Shown piece after piece: positions 1,104-15,982 of a stretch of DNA of 64,000 nucleotides. The translations under genes and the position numbers were made by a program. This DNA comes from an uncultured Gammaproteobacteria bacterium (GTDB lineage: Bacteria > Patescibacteriota > Patescibacteriia > UBA9934 > CAZDDW01). The DNA lies in assembly GCA_965231015.1 (NCBI GenBank), contig OZ246408.1, positions 545,237-609,236 on the forward strand, in the 5' to 3' direction. Below the pieces are notes generated by a model. It did no database searches and had not been told where the DNA came from. It saw only the letters and a list, made by a program, of their open reading frames with translations. Numbering within the stretch: position 1 is the first letter of the stretch; every line of letters begins with the position of its first letter.

Positions 1104-1949
1104 ATGTCCAAATTAAACACCATTGACGCTCGGTATAAATCCCGGGAAGGAGATAAATTAGCCAAGGAAGAATTGCTTCCTGTGGTCAAACAGTACTTAA
1201 AGGCCAAGAACCCGAAGATTTTAGAAGTTGGGTGTGGTTATGGTCGGAATTTGTATGCGCTTTCGCATGTTGAAGGCTCGAGCGTGGTTGGGTGTGATAT
1301 TGCAAGTGTTGAGCTTGAAAAAGCAAACGAGAAAATGAAAGAGTATGGGGTTCAGAACGTGAAAACGGTTTTGCAGACGGACGAAGAAGAGTTGCCGTTT
1401 GGTGATAACGAGTTTGACTGTGTAGTGCTTTGGCAGGTTCTAGAGCATGTGCTTATGAAACGCGAGAAGCAGAGCTTGCTCAATGAAGTGTCTCGAATTA
1501 CAAAGGATGGCGGTCTCGTTTTTATCGAAACTCCAAACCAACTCTTCCCTATCGACTACCATGACAACAACTTGCCGCTTGTGCATTGGCTCTTGCCTAA
1601 TGCGTTGCGTCGAGCCCTGACTCGAGCTGTACGCGGCCGTGACTACCCGCCTTCGCAGTACACCAGCATCTTCGAACTCAAACGCATGTTGAAACGCGCT
1701 TCCGGAACCAAGAAGCTCGAGCAACTAACCCGAGTCTATTTTGAGGATCGATACTCTGACGTCTTCCGCCACCTCAGCGGTACCCGACTCGGCTCGAAAA
1801 AACTCATTTTTATTCTCTATTACCCACTTTATTTACTTCTACGACTCTTTCGAATTTCTGGTGACGCGTTTACACCATCACTGAGAGTCGTGTTTAAGAT
1901 CAAGAAAGCAACGAAGCAAAGAATCAACGAATCAAGTGTAGAGTCATAA
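1104..1949 (+). CDS. Class I SAM-dependent methyltransferase
   Basis: 281-aa ORF with the SAM-binding motif ILEVGCGYGRN, then the acidic loop GCDI and VVLWQVLEHV, typical of the Methyltransf_11 fold. Confidence 0.8.
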   Translation: MSKLNTIDARYKSREGDKLAKEELLPVVKQYLKAKNPKILEVGCGYGRNLYALSHVEGSSVVGCDIASVELEKANEKMKEYGVQNVKTVLQTDEEELPFGDNEFDCVVLWQVLEHVLMKREKQSLLNEVSRITKDGGLVFIETPNQLFPIDYHDNNLPLVHWLLPNALRRALTRAVRGRDYPPSQYTSIFELKRMLKRASGTKKLEQLTRVYFEDRYSDVFRHLSGTRLGSKKLIFILYYPLYLLLRLFRISGDAFTPSLRVVFKIKKATKQRINESSVES

Positions 1950-1978
1950 ATGAATATCAAGAAAAATTAAAGAGTAAA

Positions 1979-2122
1979 ATGGATGATTTTGCTGTTCATG
2001 TCTATCAAATGACATCTGATTTTCCGAAACACGAGCTTTATGGTCTTACATCACAAATACGTCGTGCCGCGGTCTCAATTGTGCTTAATTATATCGAAGG
2101 GTATGCACGACGGTTGACATAA
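1979..2122 (+). pseudogene. Truncated four-helix-bundle protein (23S rRNA intervening-sequence protein family) fragment
   Basis: Hand translation gives MDDFAVHVYQMTSDFPKHELYGLTSQIRRAAVSIVLNYIEGYARRLT*. This matches the conserved FPxxExYgLtsQlrRAavSI..NIaEG core of that family, but only about 47 of the usual ~120 aa are present. The reading frame ends exactly where the composition changes. Confidence 0.55.
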
Positions 2123-2126
2123 ACCC

Positions 2127-2147
2127 AAAAACCAGACCGAAGTCCAG
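2127..2147 (-). terminator. Rho-independent terminator-like hairpin (minus strand)
   Basis: The minus-strand RNA reads CUGGAC-UUCG-GUCUGG followed by UUUUU. Two G.U pairs make the stem specific to the minus strand. Confidence 0.5.
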
Positions 2148-2474
2148 TTTCTGGGTAGAGCCGAAGTGTTTCAGTGCAACTACTCTTCAAAGTCTTCTCC
2201 CTTCAGGAAGGCTGTGTTCCAAGCGGAGTCATAACGTTCCAAGTTACATCAGCTTTCGGGCAGGCCCGTCAGCATCAGCCTTGTACAACGCTTTATTCCT
2301 TCCAAAAGATCGGATTCACAGTATTTCTACTGGTCCTACTCTCGTGAGCTTTGTCGCACTGAAGTGCGATCCCCGGCTCACTTTCAAGATTACCAGAAAT
2401 GTACCCCAGGTCAAGAGCTTTACCCCAAGCTTATTTTTGTTTTCATACACAATTTTATCCCCTATTTAGTGGAT

Positions 2475-2503
2475 AAAAAAACCTGTCGTAGTTGACCGAC
2501 AAG
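2475..2503 (-). terminator. Rho-independent terminator downstream of the 78-aa membrane protein gene
   Basis: The minus-strand RNA reads CUUGUCG-loop-CGACAGG followed by UUUUUUU, 6 nt after the stop codon at 2509. Confidence 0.6.
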
Positions 2504-2508
2504 TTTCT

Positions 2509-2745
2509 CTATAGGAGAGGGGGTGGACTATTGTTGTGGTCTCTTAGTGAAGCACTCACCACCAGCGAGACCGCTCCGATTGATGTAATAATGAATCCGA
2601 TTATCACCACAGCGTCGGTGCCGAATCTGATATGGTTATGATCACGTAAGAGTAGGTAGGACCCAAGGGTCAGGGCTCCGAGAATCGAACAGATTAGACC
2701 CACAGTGCTGAAATGCTCATGGACAGGTTTCTTGAGGTGCCTCAT
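2509..2745 (-). CDS. Small two-TM membrane protein, unknown function
   Basis: The ORF track lists 2509-2754 with a GTG start. The ATG at 2745 overlaps the upstream stop as ATGA, a translational-coupling arrangement. There are two hydrophobic helices, each followed by LRDHN, which looks like an internal duplication. GC is elevated relative to the flanks. Confidence 0.5.
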   Translation of the reverse strand: MRHLKKPVHEHFSTVGLICSILGALTLGSYLLLRDHNHIRFGTDAVVIIGFIITSIGAVSLVVSASLRDHNNSPPPLL

Positions 2746-3227
2746 TCCATGCACTCCGCTTCGCGGGCTGGGTCACAGCTCCACTTGCACCCGTCTTCTA
2801 GCAGAATATCAGCAAACATGAGATCGAACAGGTTCGGGCTCAAGCCCAATCGAATCGAGGAGACGTCACCGTATGGGAAGCACTCATAGGCAAACAGTGG
2901 CTTGTACTGATGTCCGTCTGGAAGGTCGACCCAACCGTCAGGGGCGTCGTGGACTGCTCGGTACACGAGCGTGCTCTGGAAGCACCGGTCCCAACCTATG
3001 ATGACGTTGTCCCCAACCTTCTCTGTCGGCGCACAGACCGTGTTGGTGATCTTCCAGGACCCGACCGAGGAGGTGGTCGAGTTCATGTCGGTTCCCCGCT
3101 GGTCGATCATCCTGGCTTCCCTGATCACCGTGAAGATGACGAGAATCAACAGCAGAAGTCCGATCGGGATAACGGCCTTTTTGCTAATCCACTTTTCAAG
3201 CCAAAGCTTGATTCCTTGAATGAACAT
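2742..3227 (-). CDS. Membrane-anchored Cys-containing protein, unknown function
   Basis: 161-aa ORF with an N-terminal TM anchor (AVIPIGLLLLILVIFTVI), then a domain of about 110 aa containing 7 Cys. A strong SD (GAAGGGGG) lies 7 nt upstream of the ATG. GC is elevated. Confidence 0.55.
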   Translation of the reverse strand: MFIQGIKLWLEKWISKKAVIPIGLLLLILVIFTVIREARMIDQRGTDMNSTTSSVGSWKITNTVCAPTEKVGDNVIIGWDRCFQSTLVYRAVHDAPDGWVDLPDGHQYKPLFAYECFPYGDVSSIRLGLSPNLFDLMFADILLEDGCKWSCDPAREAECME

Positions 3228-3323
3228 GTCGTACCCCCTTCTCTCTTCTGAGAAATAAGGTTAGCAAATAAAGAGGGGTTGGTCAAGGAGGTTGACCCGG
3301 TTTTCTTTGGGTTGTTCTTATGG

Positions 3324-3366
3324 TACCCCACCCAGCCTCCCCTTAAAGGGGAGGCTGGGTGGGGTA
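3324..3366. repeat. Perfect 19-bp-stem palindromic hairpin
   Basis: TACCCCACCCAGCCTCCCC-TTAAA-GGGGAGGCTGGGTGGGGTA, read directly. It lies between the ATPase operon end and the GC-elevated island. Confidence 0.8.
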
Positions 3367-3374
3367 AATCTAAA

Positions 3375-3396
3375 GGGCGGACACATAGGTCCGCCC
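3375..3396 (-). terminator. Terminator of the V/A-ATPase operon
   Basis: GGGCGGAC-6 nt-GTCCGCCC, followed on the minus strand by UUUAGAUUU. It sits 59 nt after the atpD stop. Confidence 0.6.
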
Positions 3397-3454
3397 CTAC
3401 AATCTGATCTAATGGATTGGCACAATTAATCGAGCGGATTACCGCAAGTAATCC

Positions 3455-4096
3455 CTACACCTCGGCTTTTTCCGCTTCTTCAATAATATCTTTAACCTTC
3501 ATCAAGGTAATCAGTGTGTCTCGTTCCTGTTCGGCCAACTTGTTCTGAATATACTTAATTGTTTCAGTCATTCGTGGAATGTAAACGTATTCCAGGGCAT
3601 TAACTCGACGGCGAGTTTTTTCAATCTCTTCAGCTAAAAGCTTGGCAGAGTGTTCAACCTCGGCCAAGCGCACCATGTCCTTGAGGGTAGTTGAAAAACT
3701 TTCCAGCGCCACGTCCAGTTCCGAACTAGTCAAACTGAATCCGTAACTTAGAAAGTCCCCTTCTTCCTGATACTCAAATTGTGGCACTTCCACACTCATT
3801 ACGTTCTTGATGTCAGCTTTGAGTGTAGTCCTCATACTAGGGAGCAAAAACGCGCTTTTAAGAAGCTCCGGTGGAGTCTTGGCTCCAGCAAAGAGAAAGG
3901 CCTGGAAGCCGGTCTCAAGCTGCTTTTCAACGCTCTCACGCAAGTCTTTGGCCTCTCGAATGATGGCCATGAACTGCTTCATGAGTCCGTCGCGTTTATC
4001 TTTAAGCAACTTATAACCACGCTTATTGGTTTTAAGCTTTGTCTTGAGCTTTAGGAGCTCCTGTCGAGTTGGATTTACGCCCAGTGCATTTGCCAT
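3455..4096 (-). CDS. atpD: V/A-type ATP synthase subunit D
   Basis: 213 aa. The N-terminus NPTRQELLKLKTKLKTNKRGYKLLKDKRD is typical of the subunit D coiled coil. It is the last gene of the operon. Confidence 0.9.
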   Translation of the reverse strand: MANALGVNPTRQELLKLKTKLKTNKRGYKLLKDKRDGLMKQFMAIIREAKDLRESVEKQLETGFQAFLFAGAKTPPELLKSAFLLPSMRTTLKADIKNVMSVEVPQFEYQEEGDFLSYGFSLTSSELDVALESFSTTLKDMVRLAEVEHSAKLLAEEIEKTRRRVNALEYVYIPRMTETIKYIQNKLAEQERDTLITLMKVKDIIEEAEKAEV

Positions 4097-11713: not shown

Positions 11714-12059
11714 AGTCCTGGAAGCGATCGTTCACAAGTTTTACAGCCTTAGATAAGCGTTGGTCTGAACCCTTTTCAAGCTCAGCTAAGCGCTTTTTTA
11801 GCTCTGCAGTGGCAGTTTCTTTAAAGGTTTGGGCGTCAGCCTGCACTTTTTCAGCAATAGTGCTGTTTTCTTTGGTTAAAGTGTCAGCCACGTGAGCAAA
11901 TTCATACTGCATTTGCTCCTCAAGTTCAGCCTTTTTTTCTTGGGCGTTGCTTTCTGCTTTGGCAATCAAAGACTCGGCTTCTGCCTCGGTGTTCTTGATT
12001 TGCTTAATACTGGTTTGGTCAGTCATAAAATTTTGTAAAATTGCGGCTAAAGTATACAT
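11700..12059 (-). CDS. V/A-type ATP synthase peripheral-stalk subunit (G/H type)
   Basis: 119-aa charged coiled coil and first gene of the operon, as in the Thermus-type G-I-K(L)-E-C-F-A-B-D order. The start is uncertain (Met1 or Met12). Confidence 0.6.
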   Translation of the reverse strand: MYTLAAILQNFMTDQTSIKQIKNTEAEAESLIAKAESNAQEKKAELEEQMQYEFAHVADTLTKENSTIAEKVQADAQTFKETATAELKKRLAELEKGSDQRLSKAVKLVNDRFQDYVSQ

Positions 12060-12119
12060 CGAATCTGTTTTTGGGTCAATAGCATAAAAAAATTATGAAA
12101 TTAACTTAAATAAAGAGAA

Positions 12120-12151
12120 GAACGCCGATCCGTGAAGTTGGAAAGGCGTTC
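12120..12151 (-). terminator. Terminator-like hairpin after the 303-aa island gene
   Basis: GAACGCC-18 nt-GGCGTTC, followed on the minus strand by CUUCUCUUUAUUU. Confidence 0.45.
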
Positions 12152-12177
12152 GTGAGGTAGGGGTTGCGATCGAAGTC

Positions 12178-13089
12178 CTAGGGGGTGGACTCCTCGTTGA
12201 GCAGCTCCGGGTCGATGTTGTCGGTCAGGATCCCGGAGAGATCCGCGATTAGGCGGTTTCTGACGAATGGGTCCAGACCGGGCTCCAGCTCTTGGAAGCG
12301 GAGTTCGCGGATGCGCTCTTTGAGCTGGGCGTTTTTGCCCTTGGTGTACTCGGTCAGGCCAAGCACCCATTGGCGCTGCCAGGCCTGATGAGCGCGCAGC
12401 TCGCCCTTGCTCGGAGCTGGCGAACGCTTCGGGGTGAGCCGCGAGCGCACCGACTTGACCGTAGGAGTACCCTTGGGTACCGCCTTCGCCTCCGGCTTGG
12501 TGCCGGTTCCCTGCCCGAGTGTTTGCTGTTTCGGGTTCGCAGCTCCGGGAAGTTGGCCGACGAGCGAAGGAGCGGCAGGGTGCTCCGTGTTGGTAGGTTC
12601 GTCCGCCTTCGCCTTCGCCTCCGGCTTGGTGGCTCCGGGCAGTGCACCCTTGAGAACGGGTTCAGCCGGTGGCTCGTTAGTTCCCTCGTGCGGATCCGGC
12701 CTGCCGAGAATCGCGGCCGCCTCGCTTTCGAGCGGCCTGCGCTCGAGGTTGTGCCGCGCCGTCAAGTACTCGATCATGCACGGCAGGTAAACCTCGAGAT
12801 CGAACTCGTAGTCCAGGTCGTGCCCGGCAGCCTCGAGCTCTTGCTTGATGGCGGCAAGCGGGTCAGCCTCACCGGCCTTGGTATCCGAGGCCCTGAACAG
12901 GTCCTTCGGAAACTCGACCTTGAGCGGGTCGCCCAAGATCTGCTCGGCTCGCTCGTTAAAGTACTGTTCCGCCTCCGGCTCGGAAACAGCCGCTTCGAAC
13001 CGAGGGCTTGACTGGTCGACCCCGTCAGTGCGCTCACCGCGCAGTACGGCCAGACACGCGTCCAGAAACGCCAAAATTTTCGGATCCAT
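12178..13089 (-). CDS. Hypothetical protein (GC3-rich island gene A)
   Basis: 303-aa ORF whose codon third positions are almost all G/C in this frame. A strong SD (GGGAGGGAGGAAGCA) sits directly upstream of the ATG. It has a Pro/Ala/Lys-rich central linker with TKPEAKA repeats. I recognise no family. Confidence 0.6.
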   Translation of the reverse strand: MDPKILAFLDACLAVLRGERTDGVDQSSPRFEAAVSEPEAEQYFNERAEQILGDPLKVEFPKDLFRASDTKAGEADPLAAIKQELEAAGHDLDYEFDLEVYLPCMIEYLTARHNLERRPLESEAAAILGRPDPHEGTNEPPAEPVLKGALPGATKPEAKAKADEPTNTEHPAAPSLVGQLPGAANPKQQTLGQGTGTKPEAKAVPKGTPTVKSVRSRLTPKRSPAPSKGELRAHQAWQRQWVLGLTEYTKGKNAQLKERIRELRFQELEPGLDPFVRNRLIADLSGILTDNIDPELLNEESTP

Positions 13090-13192
13090 TGCTTCCTCCC
13101 TCCCGTATTTTTTGTGTTCGGTTTTTTAATTTTTCACCATAAGTCAATTTGGCGGTGTTCCGCCACAAAGAAAGAATGGCGGGAGACAGCTA

Positions 13193-13272
13193 AAAATAGC
13201 ACAAAAACAGACTTTTGTCAAGTTCTAGACACAAAGTACATACTTGACAAATATGCTAAATTGTGCTAAATT
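13193..13272. promoter_or_regulatory. Back-to-back divergent promoters built on a 10-bp perfect inverted repeat
   Basis: The inverted repeat is TTTGTCAAGT (13214-13223), 18 nt, ACTTGACAAA (13242-13251). The right arm gives TTGACA (13244-13249), 17 nt, TGC-TAAATT (-10 at 13267-13272) on the plus strand. The left arm gives TTGACA (complement of 13215-13220), 16 nt, TGC-TATTTT (-10 at the complement of 13193-13198) on the minus strand. TGCTAAATT is also directly repeated (13255-13262 and 13265-13272). Confidence 0.6.
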
Positions 13273-13403
13273 TTGCGGTTGGTTGAGGGCAATTTCGTCC
13301 TTAATTACGTTCGTTTCCCCAGACTGTGGGTAAAAGGTCCCACACTCCCAACACGCGCGCATCGCAGGTAAGTCGATGCCAACCGGGAGAGAAAGAGGAA
13401 GAC

Positions 13404-15056
13404 ATGACCACCGAAAAGAACCTGACGCCGGAGCAGATCCGGCACAACGAGATGGTAAAGCGGGAAGCGCTCGAACAATTCCGCATGGCCAACGTGCGGA
13501 TGGACAAGCGGGGCGGCAACCGTCCCGTGGGCATGGGCGATCTCGTGGAGATCGTGGTCCCCGGGTTCTCCGAGGACCAGTTCGGGAACGCCGTGGCCTA
13601 CGACGAGGACGGGACGTTGATCCGCCCGCTGTGGGCGCTCGATAACGGCTTCGTGCCGGTGCTCGCCGTGCCCATGCGGCTGTGGGTCGTGTACCCGCGG
13701 TCGCGCACCTTCGCCCGGAACAAGTACGGGGTGGCGATCCCGTTCGACATCGTCTACTTCAAGGGGAAGGGACTCGGCTTGTGGAACCACAAGCTCTCGG
13801 ATCGGTGTGAGTTCCGGAACGCCGTGGCCGTGCGGCAGACCCGTACGGTCATGGTGGCCTTCGAGCCGAACCCGCGGCGCAAGGACGAGTGGCACGGCGG
13901 ATTCGTCGGCGGCAAGCACATCGTGTGGAAGCCGCACGGCAACCCGTACGAGAACTCGGGCGTCGAGATTGGCATGCCGATCGAGGTCCAGGCAAGTGAG
14001 TCCTGGGATCGGATCGAGTGTCTGCCGGCCGTGCAGACGCGTCGGGTCAAGGCCGACGGTTCCGTTGAGGAGCTCGAGGTCCAGACCGCTCTGGTGGACG
14101 TGGCGCTCAAGCCTGGACAGATTCAGTGTCGGGCGAGCGGTGTACGCCTGTGGGCGCTCGACGCTCTGGGCGTCAAGCGTCACACCGACGAGGCGGTACT
14201 GGATCGGCGGATCGCCGAGATGCTCGCCACGCGCGGTGAGCGGCTCAATCCGGAGACCGACCCGTTCTGCCTCGCGGCCAAGGCCGCCGGCAGCACGGTG
14301 GACTACCGTCTCGCGGGCGTGAACGCTCGCGAGGTGGCCATCAAGAACTCCGGCTCGATCCTGCGCCCGAAGGCGCCGAAGATCGGACACGTGGCCATCT
14401 TGCACCCGGAGACCGGAGCCAAGATCTGCGACGTGCTGATCGAGGACGTGCTCGGGGGTGACCTCTCCATCTACTCGTCGCGCGACGAGGTGATGGCTCG
14501 GTTCAATCAGCTCAAGCGCTACCGGCGCAGGAGCTACGCCGAGCACAACGACGATGACACCATCGTCGAGGCCGTCAAGGCCGTGTTCAAGCGGTTCGGC
14601 GTGCACCTGGAGGTGGACAACAAGATTCGCTCCCAGGTCGGCGAGGACGCCACCCGCGCTCTGCTCGAGCGGCTGATCTCCCGGGGGAGCATTCGCTTCA
14701 AGCCGGCGCGGAGCCGCTCCGAGCTCGTGGTGAGTGCCTACGCGGTGCTCGGCCTCGAGTCCTCTGACGCGGACGAGGACAGCGTGTTCAAGCGCTTCCG
14801 CGAGCTCTACTTCGTCAAGAAGGGCAAGGTGGAGCGGGAGGATCCGGCCGTGATGGTCCTCTACAAGTCTCCGGGCTACAGGTCGAACCCCAACCAGAAC
14901 AAGGGGTACAACGACCGCCGGGCACTTATGCGAACCGCGGGAGAGCACCTGATGGGTGCGGACCGGTTCAAGACGGCGCTCACCCCGCCGGAGGAGCCGA
15001 AGTCCGAGTTCGACAACGAGGCCGAGGAGCTTCGCAGCTCGTCCGACGACGAGTAG
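13404..15056 (+). CDS. Hypothetical protein (GC3-rich island gene B)
   Basis: The ORF track lists 13326-15056. I prefer the ATG at 13404 because it is preceded by the SD AAGAGGAAG. About 550 aa, GC3-rich in this frame only, with a soluble-looking amino acid composition and no motif I recognise. Confidence 0.6.
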   Translation: MTTEKNLTPEQIRHNEMVKREALEQFRMANVRMDKRGGNRPVGMGDLVEIVVPGFSEDQFGNAVAYDEDGTLIRPLWALDNGFVPVLAVPMRLWVVYPRSRTFARNKYGVAIPFDIVYFKGKGLGLWNHKLSDRCEFRNAVAVRQTRTVMVAFEPNPRRKDEWHGGFVGGKHIVWKPHGNPYENSGVEIGMPIEVQASESWDRIECLPAVQTRRVKADGSVEELEVQTALVDVALKPGQIQCRASGVRLWALDALGVKRHTDEAVLDRRIAEMLATRGERLNPETDPFCLAAKAAGSTVDYRLAGVNAREVAIKNSGSILRPKAPKIGHVAILHPETGAKICDVLIEDVLGGDLSIYSSRDEVMARFNQLKRYRRRSYAEHNDDDTIVEAVKAVFKRFGVHLEVDNKIRSQVGEDATRALLERLISRGSIRFKPARSRSELVVSAYAVLGLESSDADEDSVFKRFRELYFVKKGKVEREDPAVMVLYKSPGYRSNPNQNKGYNDRRALMRTAGEHLMGADRFKTALTPPEEPKSEFDNEAEELRSSSDDE

Positions 15057-15064
15057 ATCCTACC

Positions 15065-15088
15065 AAAAAAACAGCCGGCAACCGGCTG
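15065..15088 (-). terminator. Rho-independent terminator of the 15140-15982 gene
   Basis: The minus-strand RNA reads CAGCCGG-UUG-CCGGCUG followed by UUUUUUU. Confidence 0.6.
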
Positions 15089-15100
15089 CCTTCCAAACAG

Positions 15101-15140
15101 AGGGCGCTCATCACAACGATGTGCGCCCTTATCATTTTAT
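15101..15140 (+). terminator. Terminator-like hairpin for island gene B
   Basis: AGGGCGC-15 nt-GCGCCCT, followed by UAUCAUUUUAUU on the plus strand. Confidence 0.4.
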
Positions 15141-15982
15141 TAATAAAGATCAGTTAGTTCCATTGTGCCATCTTCATAAATCCAAGCATGAAACTGTCCA
15201 ATCTTGGTCATTCCTTTTCCTGAAATATCAACAGCATAGGCCTCAATCAAATGAGTTCGGTTATCTTTTAGCTTTTGAGGTATATCAATATGCGCATTAA
15301 AGCCATGATAACTATCGTACAAACATCCTGAAAAAGCACTTAAAAGATCTTGCCTGGAATTCTCGGCAATAACGGTGTCCATATAGAAACCATCTCCGTA
15401 GATCATAACTGGCACCCGAATATTATCAACATTATAGGTGTCAAAATCAATGGCCCAACCTGAAACGACATCACTTCTGGCAGGGATATCATCAAAGCTA
15501 CCTTGAACTCCATCGTTGATTGGATCCATGGTTATACTTCCAATGTAGGCTACTTCAGAGCCAGACCAAACTACCTCATCATGTGAGGCAAAAACGTAAA
15601 TAGTGTGTGTCTGTCCATCGTACAAAGTTGGATTTACTTCCCACCCAAAACCACTTTTTAAGGACACGTTTTCATCGTAGTACTCATAGACATCATATCG
15701 GGACAAGTAAGTAGTTTGTTGACCTAGGATTTCGTTGTAATTAAAAGTATCGGAAAGAGTGAAAAAAACATACATCGGTGTTTCGGAATCAGTGGTGTCA
15801 ACAACCCAACCACGTACCATGGCACTGTTGTTGCAAGAGGAATCAGTTTGTCCCTGGATATTGTCAACCGAACCCTCGATTGTTCCTGCAGCCTTTGTTA
15901 TGTTTGAGGTGAAATAAAATCCACCGGATCCGATTGCAACTGCCAACGTGGCAATCAGAAATCCCTTGAAGAAATAATTCAT
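15140..15982 (-). CDS. Secreted or membrane-anchored protein with two tandem repeat modules, unknown function
   Basis: Start moved to Met25 (MNYFFKGFLIATLAVAIG signal/anchor), which removes the overlap with tatD. There are two similar modules: GSVDNIQG...VRGWVVD...THTIYVFA and GSFDDIPA...VSGWAIDF...THLIEAYAVD. Confidence 0.6.
   Translation of the reverse strand: MNYFFKGFLIATLAVAIGSGGFYFTSNITKAAGTIEGSVDNIQGQTDSSCNNSAMVRGWVVDTTDSETPMYVFFTLSDTFNYNEILGQQTTYLSRYDVYEYYDENVSLKSGFGWEVNPTLYDGQTHTIYVFASHDEVVWSGSEVAYIGSITMDPINDGVQGSFDDIPARSDVVSGWAIDFDTYNVDNIRVPVMIYGDGFYMDTVIAENSRQDLLSAFSGCLYDSYHGFNAHIDIPQKLKDNRTHLIEAYAVDISGKGMTKIGQFHAWIYEDGTMELTDLY

Follow-up and report, generated by a model that had tools for sequence, protein, structure and literature searches.

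A structured RNA gene was found on the minus strand of the 2.5 kb that separate the gene for subunit D of a V/A-type ATPase (V-ATPase) from uvrD in a 64-kb stretch of DNA, herein referred to as the window. This gene matches no Rfam family, was not found in the literature searched, and is the part of the interval most worth following. The first-pass annotation of the same DNA had taken positions 2123-2508 for the edge and spacer of an island of elevated G+C content (GC), inserted into a resident gene for a four-helix-bundle protein. These positions are actually occupied by the conserved RNA gene, with its promoter and terminator signals, and by the terminator of a two-gene operon. The observations made in that annotation were largely right and their interpretation mostly wrong: the supposed island boundary is an RNA gene, and the supposedly disrupted host gene is most simply read as a newcomer.

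As a whole, the region is probably a long-standing variable spacer of a family-level clade of Patescibacteria, with the V-ATPase operon on one side and uvrD on the other, and would contain four separate things. The first would be a two-gene operon with its own promoter, Shine-Dalgarno sequence (SD), and terminator, encoding a Cys-rich surface protein and a small membrane peptide. The second would be the RNA gene, an independent unit on the minus strand, transcribed from an extended -10 promoter of its own and ending in its own intrinsic terminator. The third would be a 222-bp segment carrying the 5' half of a 23S_rRNA_IVP (IVP) gene, located between a methyltransferase gene and the RNA terminator, and the fourth a palindrome located between the terminator of the ATPase operon and the promoter of the two-gene operon.

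Structure and Conservation of the RNA Gene

The following elements of the RNA gene were found:

2156-2383, minus strand: core of the RNA gene, 228 nucleotides (nt) with 11 helices; about 260 nt including the terminator
2387-2414, minus strand: putative promoter of the RNA gene, with a -35 box TTGACC (2409-2414), a 16-nt spacer, and an extended -10 box TGGTAATCT (2387-2395)
2121-2156, minus strand: intrinsic terminator as read from the sequence, ACCCAGAAACUGGAC-UUCG-GUCUGGUUUUUGGGUUU; the stop codon of the IVP fragment overlaps its last bases

In BLAST comparisons with the lineages L004 and L006, nucleotide identity is 82-86% over the stretch 2121-2480, exceeding the 71-80% of the flanking protein genes. 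A covariance model (CM), R1, was built from four sequences. Full-length matches to it were found in eight lineages, with E-values from 1e-41 to 1e-77: the window, L004, L105, L011, L106, L111, L119, and L121. In the alignment of these eight sequences, 94.2% of the cells are in standard pairs, compared with 29-50% if the partners are slid by 1-3 columns. Compensatory changes on both sides were found in 25 of the 66 pairs, and none of 500 shuffles reached the observed values. Because this alignment was fitted to the model, a separate run of plain MAFFT and RNAalifold was carried out for six sequences; it gave the same helices, with 19 compensated pairs. Additionally, the single-sequence fold has a z-score of -4.4. 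The RNA is under structural selection.

In the fold, helices P1-P4 make up a closing rod, P5 is a hairpin, P6 is a long-range helix, P7-P10 build a distal arm, and P11 is a small and variable hairpin. The loop of P5 is of the GNRA type in most lineages. Conserved unpaired stretches are GAUCGC, GUAGGAC, CCGAUC, AAUAAAGC, GUCAUGA, ACAGCC, and GAAGAC. Conserved G-U pairs, such as those at columns 76-260 and 94-201, which are present in all eight sequences, identify the minus strand of the window as the transcribed one.

The stretch is not coding, because insertions and deletions between homologues, all located in hairpin tips, are 2, 5, 23, and 46 nt long and thus not multiples of three. A protein-coding function of 2121-2414, or its origin as the decayed rest of an IVP gene, is accordingly hardly credible. 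Mechanical open reading frames (ORFs) of 44-62 amino acids (aa) do occur here in the window, and one ORF of 14 codons is kept in the three closest lineages. Nevertheless, the insertions and deletions disrupt the frame, the substitutions are paired across helices, and the same stretch occurs without any IVP gene in the seven other lineages. The 14-codon ORF (UUG UAC AAG ... AUG UAA; 2246-2290, minus strand) is preceded by GGAAGGAA and has the same stop in L004 and in L006/L105, but it is not kept in L011, L106, and L111. It is probably untranslated, because its substitutions fit the covariation of the helices. A small ORF was also considered as an identity of the RNA and was rejected, being not conserved in subgroup B.

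The promoter hexamers of the RNA gene are conserved across lineages, with a variable spacer between them. In all six lineages inspected, a TTGAC(A/C) box and a TAnnnT box lie about 17 nt apart at the right distance from the RNA, and the RNA ends at the same place in a stem-loop followed by a U-run. The stems of these terminators differ between lineages and covary. No same-strand gene is consistently located downstream of the RNA across the loci, so the RNA is not a leader or riboswitch. It is also independent of the Cys-rich protein, because L011, which lacks the gene for that protein, retains the RNA. Most likely, it is not a cis-leader but a stable folded RNA with a function in trans, as a component of a ribonucleoprotein or as a regulator.

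Upstream of the RNA promoter, a motif containing GGGGATA follows a GTGGA-like motif in the window (2440-2470), L011 (12160-12185), and L111 (about 1030-1060). This arrangement occurs in both RNA subgroups, at a varying distance from the -35 box, and may be a binding site of a regulator.

Comparison with Known RNA Classes

A search of the whole window with Rfam 15 at the gathering threshold gave no match for the RNA gene. At E-values up to 10, searches of 1900-3500, of 2100-2440, and of the L011 homologue gave only noise on the palindrome. ARAGORN found no tmRNA. No match to the RNA was found in an exact 19-mer scan of genome contigs or by BLAST against phage and plasmid collections, and pattern scans of viral contigs gave chance matches only. 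A metagenome pattern scan yielded 16 loci, including two true homologues, L099 (on the same contig as L006) and L105; by CM and nhmmer, the other loci are chance matches. In L010 and L012, no copy of the RNA was detected up to 10 kb from the locus.

Three further candidates were rejected. For domain 5 of a group II intron, a similar GAGCCG... stretch is present, but it pairs with the distant 3' end. The likeness of AGGAAUAAAGC and ACAGCCUU to P4 of RNase P fails in both sequence and register. For the template of a diversity-generating retroelement (DGR), neither a reverse transcriptase nor a repeat was found.

The RNA is unlikely to belong, in strongly diverged form, to a known housekeeping class, among which a 6S-like RNA would be the most plausible and RNase P, signal recognition particle (SRP) RNA, and tmRNA less so. 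Like 6S RNA (ssrS, RF00013 and related families), the RNA has its own promoter and terminator signals, both of them strong and independent, and a stem closed by base pairing between the 5' and 3' ends. Its overall shape, an interrupted rod about 55 bp long that contains two large internal bubbles, recalls 6S RNA in part, with the hairpins P5 and P11 and the helix P6 in addition. It is also retained in a genome of about 1 Mb. Moreover, sequence conservation of 6S RNAs between phyla is poor. In contrast to these similarities, none of the 6S, RNase P, SRP, and tmRNA models was matched at E-values up to 10, even if the 340 nt were searched alone, and neither the CR-I, CR-V, and P4 motifs of RNase P nor the GNAR and AGCA motifs of SRP RNA nor the tRNA-like domain of tmRNA were seen on inspection of the alignment. 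The RNA exceeds typical 6S RNAs by about 40 nt in length and is more branched, with two extra hairpins (P5 and P11), the long-range helix P6, and variable insertions. Furthermore, it is known from one clade only and, as noted, was not found near the same locus in L010 and L012. Binding of RNA polymerase could be proposed for it only by analogy.

With the raiA, OLE, ROOL, GOLLD, and HEARO RNAs, the RNA shares many covarying helices, a mostly GNRA-type loop (that of P5), and peripheral insertions of variable length. It differs from them by its smaller size (about 230 nt), the lack of an Rfam match, and its occurrence in a narrow clade of Patescibacteria. Unlike HEARO, which is accompanied by IscB, it has no fixed protein partner gene.

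Genomes of Patescibacteria are about 1 Mb in size and contain little non-coding DNA. An RNA gene of 260 nt likely does something important, because it is kept under structural selection in such a small genome. Few RNAs that have not been assigned a function are known to contain so many covarying helices. As a tentative proposal, this RNA may found an undescribed class of complex-folded bacterial RNA in one clade of Patescibacteria, with a biochemical role (a ribonucleoprotein scaffold, a ribozyme, or a regulator of the polymerase or ribosome) that would have no relation to any catalogued family, and the Cys-rich protein encoded next to the V-ATPase operon may be a fast-evolving surface protein of an episymbiont. 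Hardly anything has been explored of the RNA biology of this group, and the RNA family offers a concrete candidate that can be tested. The two proteins described below are, taken alone, ordinary lineage-specific hypotheticals.

Setting of the Locus

The genome of origin is about 1.0 Mb in size, and its nearest relatives are metagenome-assembled genomes (MAGs) of Patescibacteria (Candidate Phyla Radiation). The locus is present as exact copies in three Logan assemblies. The interval has the following neighbors:

3455-4096, minus strand: gene for subunit D, the last gene of a complete V/A-type ATPase operon
1104-1949, plus strand: methyltransferase gene
from about 946 leftwards, minus strand: uvrD

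In L004, the gene order is D, the gene for a 161-aa protein, a gene for a 75-aa protein, the RNA, and the methyltransferase gene; no IVP gene is present. The D subunits are 79-88% identical between lineages and 97.6% identical between the window and L004.

The closest relatives of the V-ATPase, uvrD, and mreB genes of the window were found in the MAGs L010, L011, L012, and L017; the D subunits of L010-L012 are 79-84% identical to that of the window. All four MAGs are titled "uncultured Gammaproteobacteria", and these labels look wrong.

Cys-Rich Anchored Protein

The two-gene operon is composed of the following elements:

3234-3286, minus strand: putative expression signals of the operon, with a -35 box TTGACC (3281-3286), an extended -10 box TGCTAACCT (3258-3266), and the SD GAAGGGGG (3234-3241)
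2742-3227, minus strand: gene for the 161-aa protein, with a conserved amphipathic N-terminal segment, one predicted transmembrane (TM) anchor, and a putative ectodomain about 100 aa long
2509-2745, minus strand: gene for the 78-aa protein, with two predicted TM helices, ATGA-coupled to the upstream gene
2475-2503, minus strand: terminator-like hairpin followed by a run of seven T residues, as read from the sequence

The first-pass annotation had described these genes as joined by an ATGA overlap and the first of them as preceded by a strong SD. Both descriptions hold: the SD is located 6 nt upstream of the ATG and is kept in the orthologues, and the identical 4-nt overlap was found in L004 and L006. 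The first gene had further been said to encode an anchored protein with seven Cys. A single N-terminal hydrophobic anchor is indeed predicted, whereas the number of Cys is six. All of them belong to the ectodomain, together with the motifs LPDGH and GC(K/R)WSCDP..E..C.

Besides its own, only two 90%-identity clusters were found for this protein among 5.8 billion proteins. P0002 (L004/L005) is 70% identical to it and has the same context as in the window; P0003 (L006-L009, L105) is 62% identical and is followed by a coupled gene for a 76-aa protein. A full HMMER scan of 1.84 billion representatives gave eight sequences at E-values up to 1e-3, one of them a spurious repeat protein, and in this way six more distant members of the family were added. 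Every real one contains LPDGH and GC(R/K)W(S/T/Q)CDP..E..C. L107, a second contig with the same Cys-rich protein as L106, was not counted as an extra lineage.

As in the window and L004, the V-ATPase D gene is immediately followed by the homologue in L106, L119/L120, and L121; in L106, L119, and L121, the RNA is located farther downstream on the same contigs. The Cys-rich proteins are merely 25-40% identical between subgroups, where the D subunits are 79-88% identical. Because the position after D is kept at such low identity, the gene is an old and very fast-evolving resident of the site. It is under purifying selection, with a ratio of nonsynonymous to synonymous divergence (dN/dS) of 0.17-0.21, and the C-terminus is the best conserved part of the protein. 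The family thereby illustrates the divergence speed of a probable surface protein.

The first-pass annotation could place neither of the two proteins, and no family was found for them by profile searches either. No significant match was obtained with Pfam (searched for each member of the 161-aa family), PADLOC (0 hits), PHROGs, or PDB sequence profiles, and for the 161-aa protein BLAST and tblastn against phage genomes gave none. The AlphaFold2 model of the 161-aa protein is weak (pLDDT 61) and gave no fold match. The literature searched contained no description of such a protein or RNA in Patescibacteria. Judged from its topology, the 161-aa protein would be a type-II-anchored, fast-evolving protein of the cell surface or envelope, with the Cys-rich domain of about 100 aa probably facing outward and disulfide-bonded. 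Such a surface role would fit an episymbiont.

The position of the gene also suggests another role: the Cys-rich protein, alone or with its partner, might be an accessory membrane subunit, an assembly factor, or a regulator of the V/A-type ATPase. In favor of such a role, the gene follows D directly, at a distance of 78-228 nt, in five lineages (window, L004, L106, L119, and L121) that are deeply diverged; a membrane anchor and a conserved cytoplasmic N-terminal segment would suit it as well. Nevertheless, we regard it as quite improbable. The gene has its own predicted promoter and is separated from D by terminator hairpins. L010, L011, and L012 lack it, although their ATPase subunits show the same degree of similarity, and the D subunits of L011 and L106 are 95% identical, yet only L106 has the gene. 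In L007/L008 no same-strand D gene precedes it, and in L108/L109 it is found in a ParAB context. Finally, the Cys-rich sequence evolves far faster than any ATPase subunit.

Small Partner Gene

The 78-aa protein had been described as two TM helices, each ending in LRDHN, that look like an internal duplication. The two helices and both LRDHN motifs were confirmed, and the halves align with a score of 49, compared with a mean of 18.4 for shuffled sequences (none of 2000 shuffles reached it). The protein is a singleton, with itself as the sole match among 5.8 billion proteins. A forced alignment with the 75-aa protein of L004 gave 29% identity, and the BLASTP comparison was not significant; the DNA on both flanks of the small gene is about 80% identical between the window and L004. 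The small genes of L004 and L006 are 76% identical, with a dN/dS of 0.25.

The partner is a two-TM protein in three lineages. In L106, L111, and L112, the gene downstream of the Cys-rich gene encodes an unrelated, soluble product of 79-87 aa, and in L121 no partner gene was found downstream of it. Because the partner differs in type between lineages or is missing, a fixed two-component system is unlikely. The small partner would instead be an interchangeable or dispensable membrane peptide.

Composition and the Variable D-uvrD Interval

The reported elevation of GC is real. The 161-aa gene has a GC of 0.547, compared with a window mean of 0.443, and its GC at third codon positions (GC3) is 0.716, compared with 0.38-0.51 in 20 other genes. 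This GC is reached by just 4% of windows of the same size, the others being located at 12.0-15.3 kb. Among the homologues, GC3 of the Cys-rich gene is also high in L119 and L121, and it is host-like in L106, L111, and L112.

Despite this composition, a recent acquisition is not supported: between the window and L004, the synonymous divergence (dS) of the 161-aa gene is 1.03, of the same order as the 0.71-0.75 of the ATPase D and B genes. The term island is appropriate for a broadly island-like, variable site, but not for a single recently inserted cassette. L010-L012 keep the order from the V-ATPase operon to uvrD and mreB, and the contents of the interval differ. It is 0.74 kb long in L012; in L010, unrelated GC-rich genes take up 4.7 kb of it, and in L011 other genes occupy 4.5 kb. 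The Cys-rich gene is not present in any of the three. Because its content differs between kept flanks, the D-uvrD interval is a variable hotspot. Its cargo is often rich in GC3 in several lineages.

Various genes were found in the interval of the related lineages. In L010 (10600-15300), there are five ORFs of 204-453 aa. L011 (10640-15090) has two paralogous proteins of 221 and 223 aa, with a homologue in L106. In L121 (9724-11760), a TIR-domain protein and a DUF7670 protein are encoded, and in L119 (10470-13065) an IS200-type Y1 transposase gene is located directly after the RNA.

Several points weigh against the reading of the region as a variable spacer with an independent RNA gene and a surface-protein operon. 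Part of the pair statistics of the RNA comes from the model-fitted alignment, and all eight sequences belong to one clade. The discrete RNA transcript is a prediction from promoter-like and terminator-like signals conserved in six to eight lineages, and a simple consensus scan called neither the promoter of the RNA nor that of the two-gene operon. A diverged housekeeping identity of the RNA is possible, as is its presence elsewhere in L010 and L012, the searches having covered individual loci. The role suggested for the 161-aa protein is read from its topology and Cys pattern only. Additionally, GC3 of the 161-aa gene is 0.71-0.78 in three lineages separated by a dS of at least 1, and simple vertical descent with amelioration does not predict that it stays at these values. 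The persistently high GC3 could be explained by repeated replacement from a GC-rich gene pool or by biased gene conversion at a recombination hotspot.

IVP Fragment and the 222-bp Segment

Two features are located between the methyltransferase gene and the RNA terminator:

1901-2122, plus strand: AT-rich segment of 222 bp, GC 0.365, found only in this genome
1979-2122, plus strand: IVP fragment, an ORF of 47 aa corresponding to the N-terminal part of 23S_rRNA_IVP

The first-pass annotation had correctly noted that a gene of the four-helix-bundle family stops here after about 47 aa (Pfam PF05635, E-value 3.1e-14, 53.5 bits with a cut-off of 33.8). The match covers positions 11-53 of the 106 in the profile, so the fragment is truncated and not naturally short. 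The same annotation had implied that insertion of the island truncated this gene as a resident of the site, and had suggested looking for an intact copy in relatives lacking the island. The comparison with L004 speaks otherwise: this lineage has the 161-aa gene, the small gene, and the RNA, yet no IVP gene. Homology with L004 is lost at about 1900 and regained at 2121; the 222-bp segment in between replaces the C-terminal tail of the methyltransferase (the new tail extends to 1949). In L004, the RNA terminator ends a few nt away from the stop codon of the methyltransferase gene.

No IVP gene was found beside the RNA in the other seven RNA-bearing lineages, and no IVP paralogue, 3' half, or continuation in any frame was found in the window or the fetched loci. 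On the simplest reading, the IVP fragment would be a newcomer, or the remnant of a newcomer, in this genome, and would not have been the target into which the 161-aa gene, the 78-aa gene, and the RNA inserted. The 47-aa ORF resembles the 23S_rRNA_IVP proteins (PF05635, related to the bAvd four-helix bundle) in matching the N-terminal half of their profile. In contrast to the known systems, only half of the profile is present, this fragment occurs only here, and no rRNA, reverse transcriptase, or DGR is located near it.

Toxin, Immunity, and Lysis Systems

A secreted Cys-rich protein with a tiny membrane partner had been compared to toxin/immunity or phage lysis-type pairs, carried by a recent GC-rich island that inserted into the four-helix-bundle gene and truncated it. 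The composition (GC3 of 0.72, compared with 0.38-0.51 in the host) and the variable hotspot with its GC-rich cargo in relatives would agree with this origin. In addition, the small genes of the window and L004 are wholly different in spite of flanks that are about 80% identical, a pattern expected of an immunity gene, and weak sub-threshold matches to Cpta_toxin (E-value 0.025) and to a holin PHROG (E-value 0.72) were obtained.

We nevertheless consider this explanation very unlikely. As to the island, the same genes are found in L004 in the same context, with a dS of the order of that of the flanking core genes, and homologues share the position in lineages at 25-40% identity; the IVP gene is found in no other lineage, its fragment being confined to a genome-specific segment. 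As to the function, no significant match to a toxin, defense, or lysis family was found, the C-terminus is the most conserved part of the 161-aa protein, unlike in polymorphic toxins, and no cognate partner is kept across the homologues, the partner being soluble or absent elsewhere. No endolysin is encoded near the pair, the neighbors of which are the V-ATPase operon, the methyltransferase gene, and uvrD.

The pair does resemble bacteriocin/immunity and holin pairs in consisting of two short coupled genes, with a Cys-rich extracytoplasmic part and a divergent two-TM partner. It differs from them in that it has no leader-peptide motif, a conserved anchor in place of a cleavable signal, a conserved C-terminal domain with a varying type of partner, and neither a family match nor a transporter or endolysin gene nearby. 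A fast-evolving surface protein with an exchangeable membrane peptide is the reading that we prefer for the two genes.

Transcription Signals, Palindrome, and Hairpins

The signals of the two-gene operon are kept in L004, L006, and L007, with constant hexamers and varying spacers. At the position of its terminator, a different hairpin with a T-run was found in L004 and L006. With the conserved signals on both sides, the RNA gene and the two-gene operon are predicted to be independent transcription units.

Two further features are located in the spacer between the D gene and the operon:

3324-3366, no strand: perfect palindrome of 43 nt, found only in this genome
3366-3397, minus strand: GC-rich hairpin GGGGCGGAC...GUCCGCCC with a U-rich tail, the likely V-ATPase operon terminator as read from the sequence

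The palindrome had been reported as a perfect 19-bp stem that closes the island. It is perfect, with 21+1+21 nt, and can be read as a 19-bp stem, leaving a loop of 5 nt, or as a 20-bp stem, leaving one of 3 nt; no other perfect hairpin in the 64 kb is as long. It does not bound a conserved unit, having no counterpart in the spacers of L004, L006, and L007. From its location between the ATPase-terminator hairpin and the promoter of the two-gene operon, it could be an insulator, an extra terminator, or a small insertion.

The ATPase-terminator hairpin is present in L004 in the opposite orientation and elsewhere in the spacer. The hairpin GGGCGGAC-N6-GTCCGCCC was found at 3375-3396 of the window, where it is a single copy in the 64 kb, and at 8849-8878 of L004. 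Between the two genomes, its loop is reverse-complemented and its place in the spacer differs, which is suggestive of a small palindromic element that can invert or move.

The -35 box of the two-gene operon is the 3' arm of a hairpin, GGTCAA-N5-TTGACC, at 3281-3297 of the window. In L106 (4780-4830 and 5350-5410) and L119 (9940-9985), GAGGTCA...TTGACCTCG is followed by TGCTAAGTT, and the 3' arm of the hairpin is again the -35 box. Because successive promoters share this hairpin, each gene of the interval looks like a cassette with its own terminator-promoter module.

Outside the interval, a second GC-rich block (0.64-0.65) was found at 12011-15256, on the far side of the V-ATPase operon. It contains an ORF of 303 aa (12178-13089, minus strand) and an ORF of 576 aa (13326-15056, plus strand), neither with a Pfam match. 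Because of this block, the ATPase operon is flanked by compositionally foreign genes on both sides. On the other side of the interval, the divergent intergenic region between uvrD and the methyltransferase gene (955-1050) contains several short GC-rich palindromes (CCCCTTTTGGGG, CCCCTTCCTATAAGGAGGGG).

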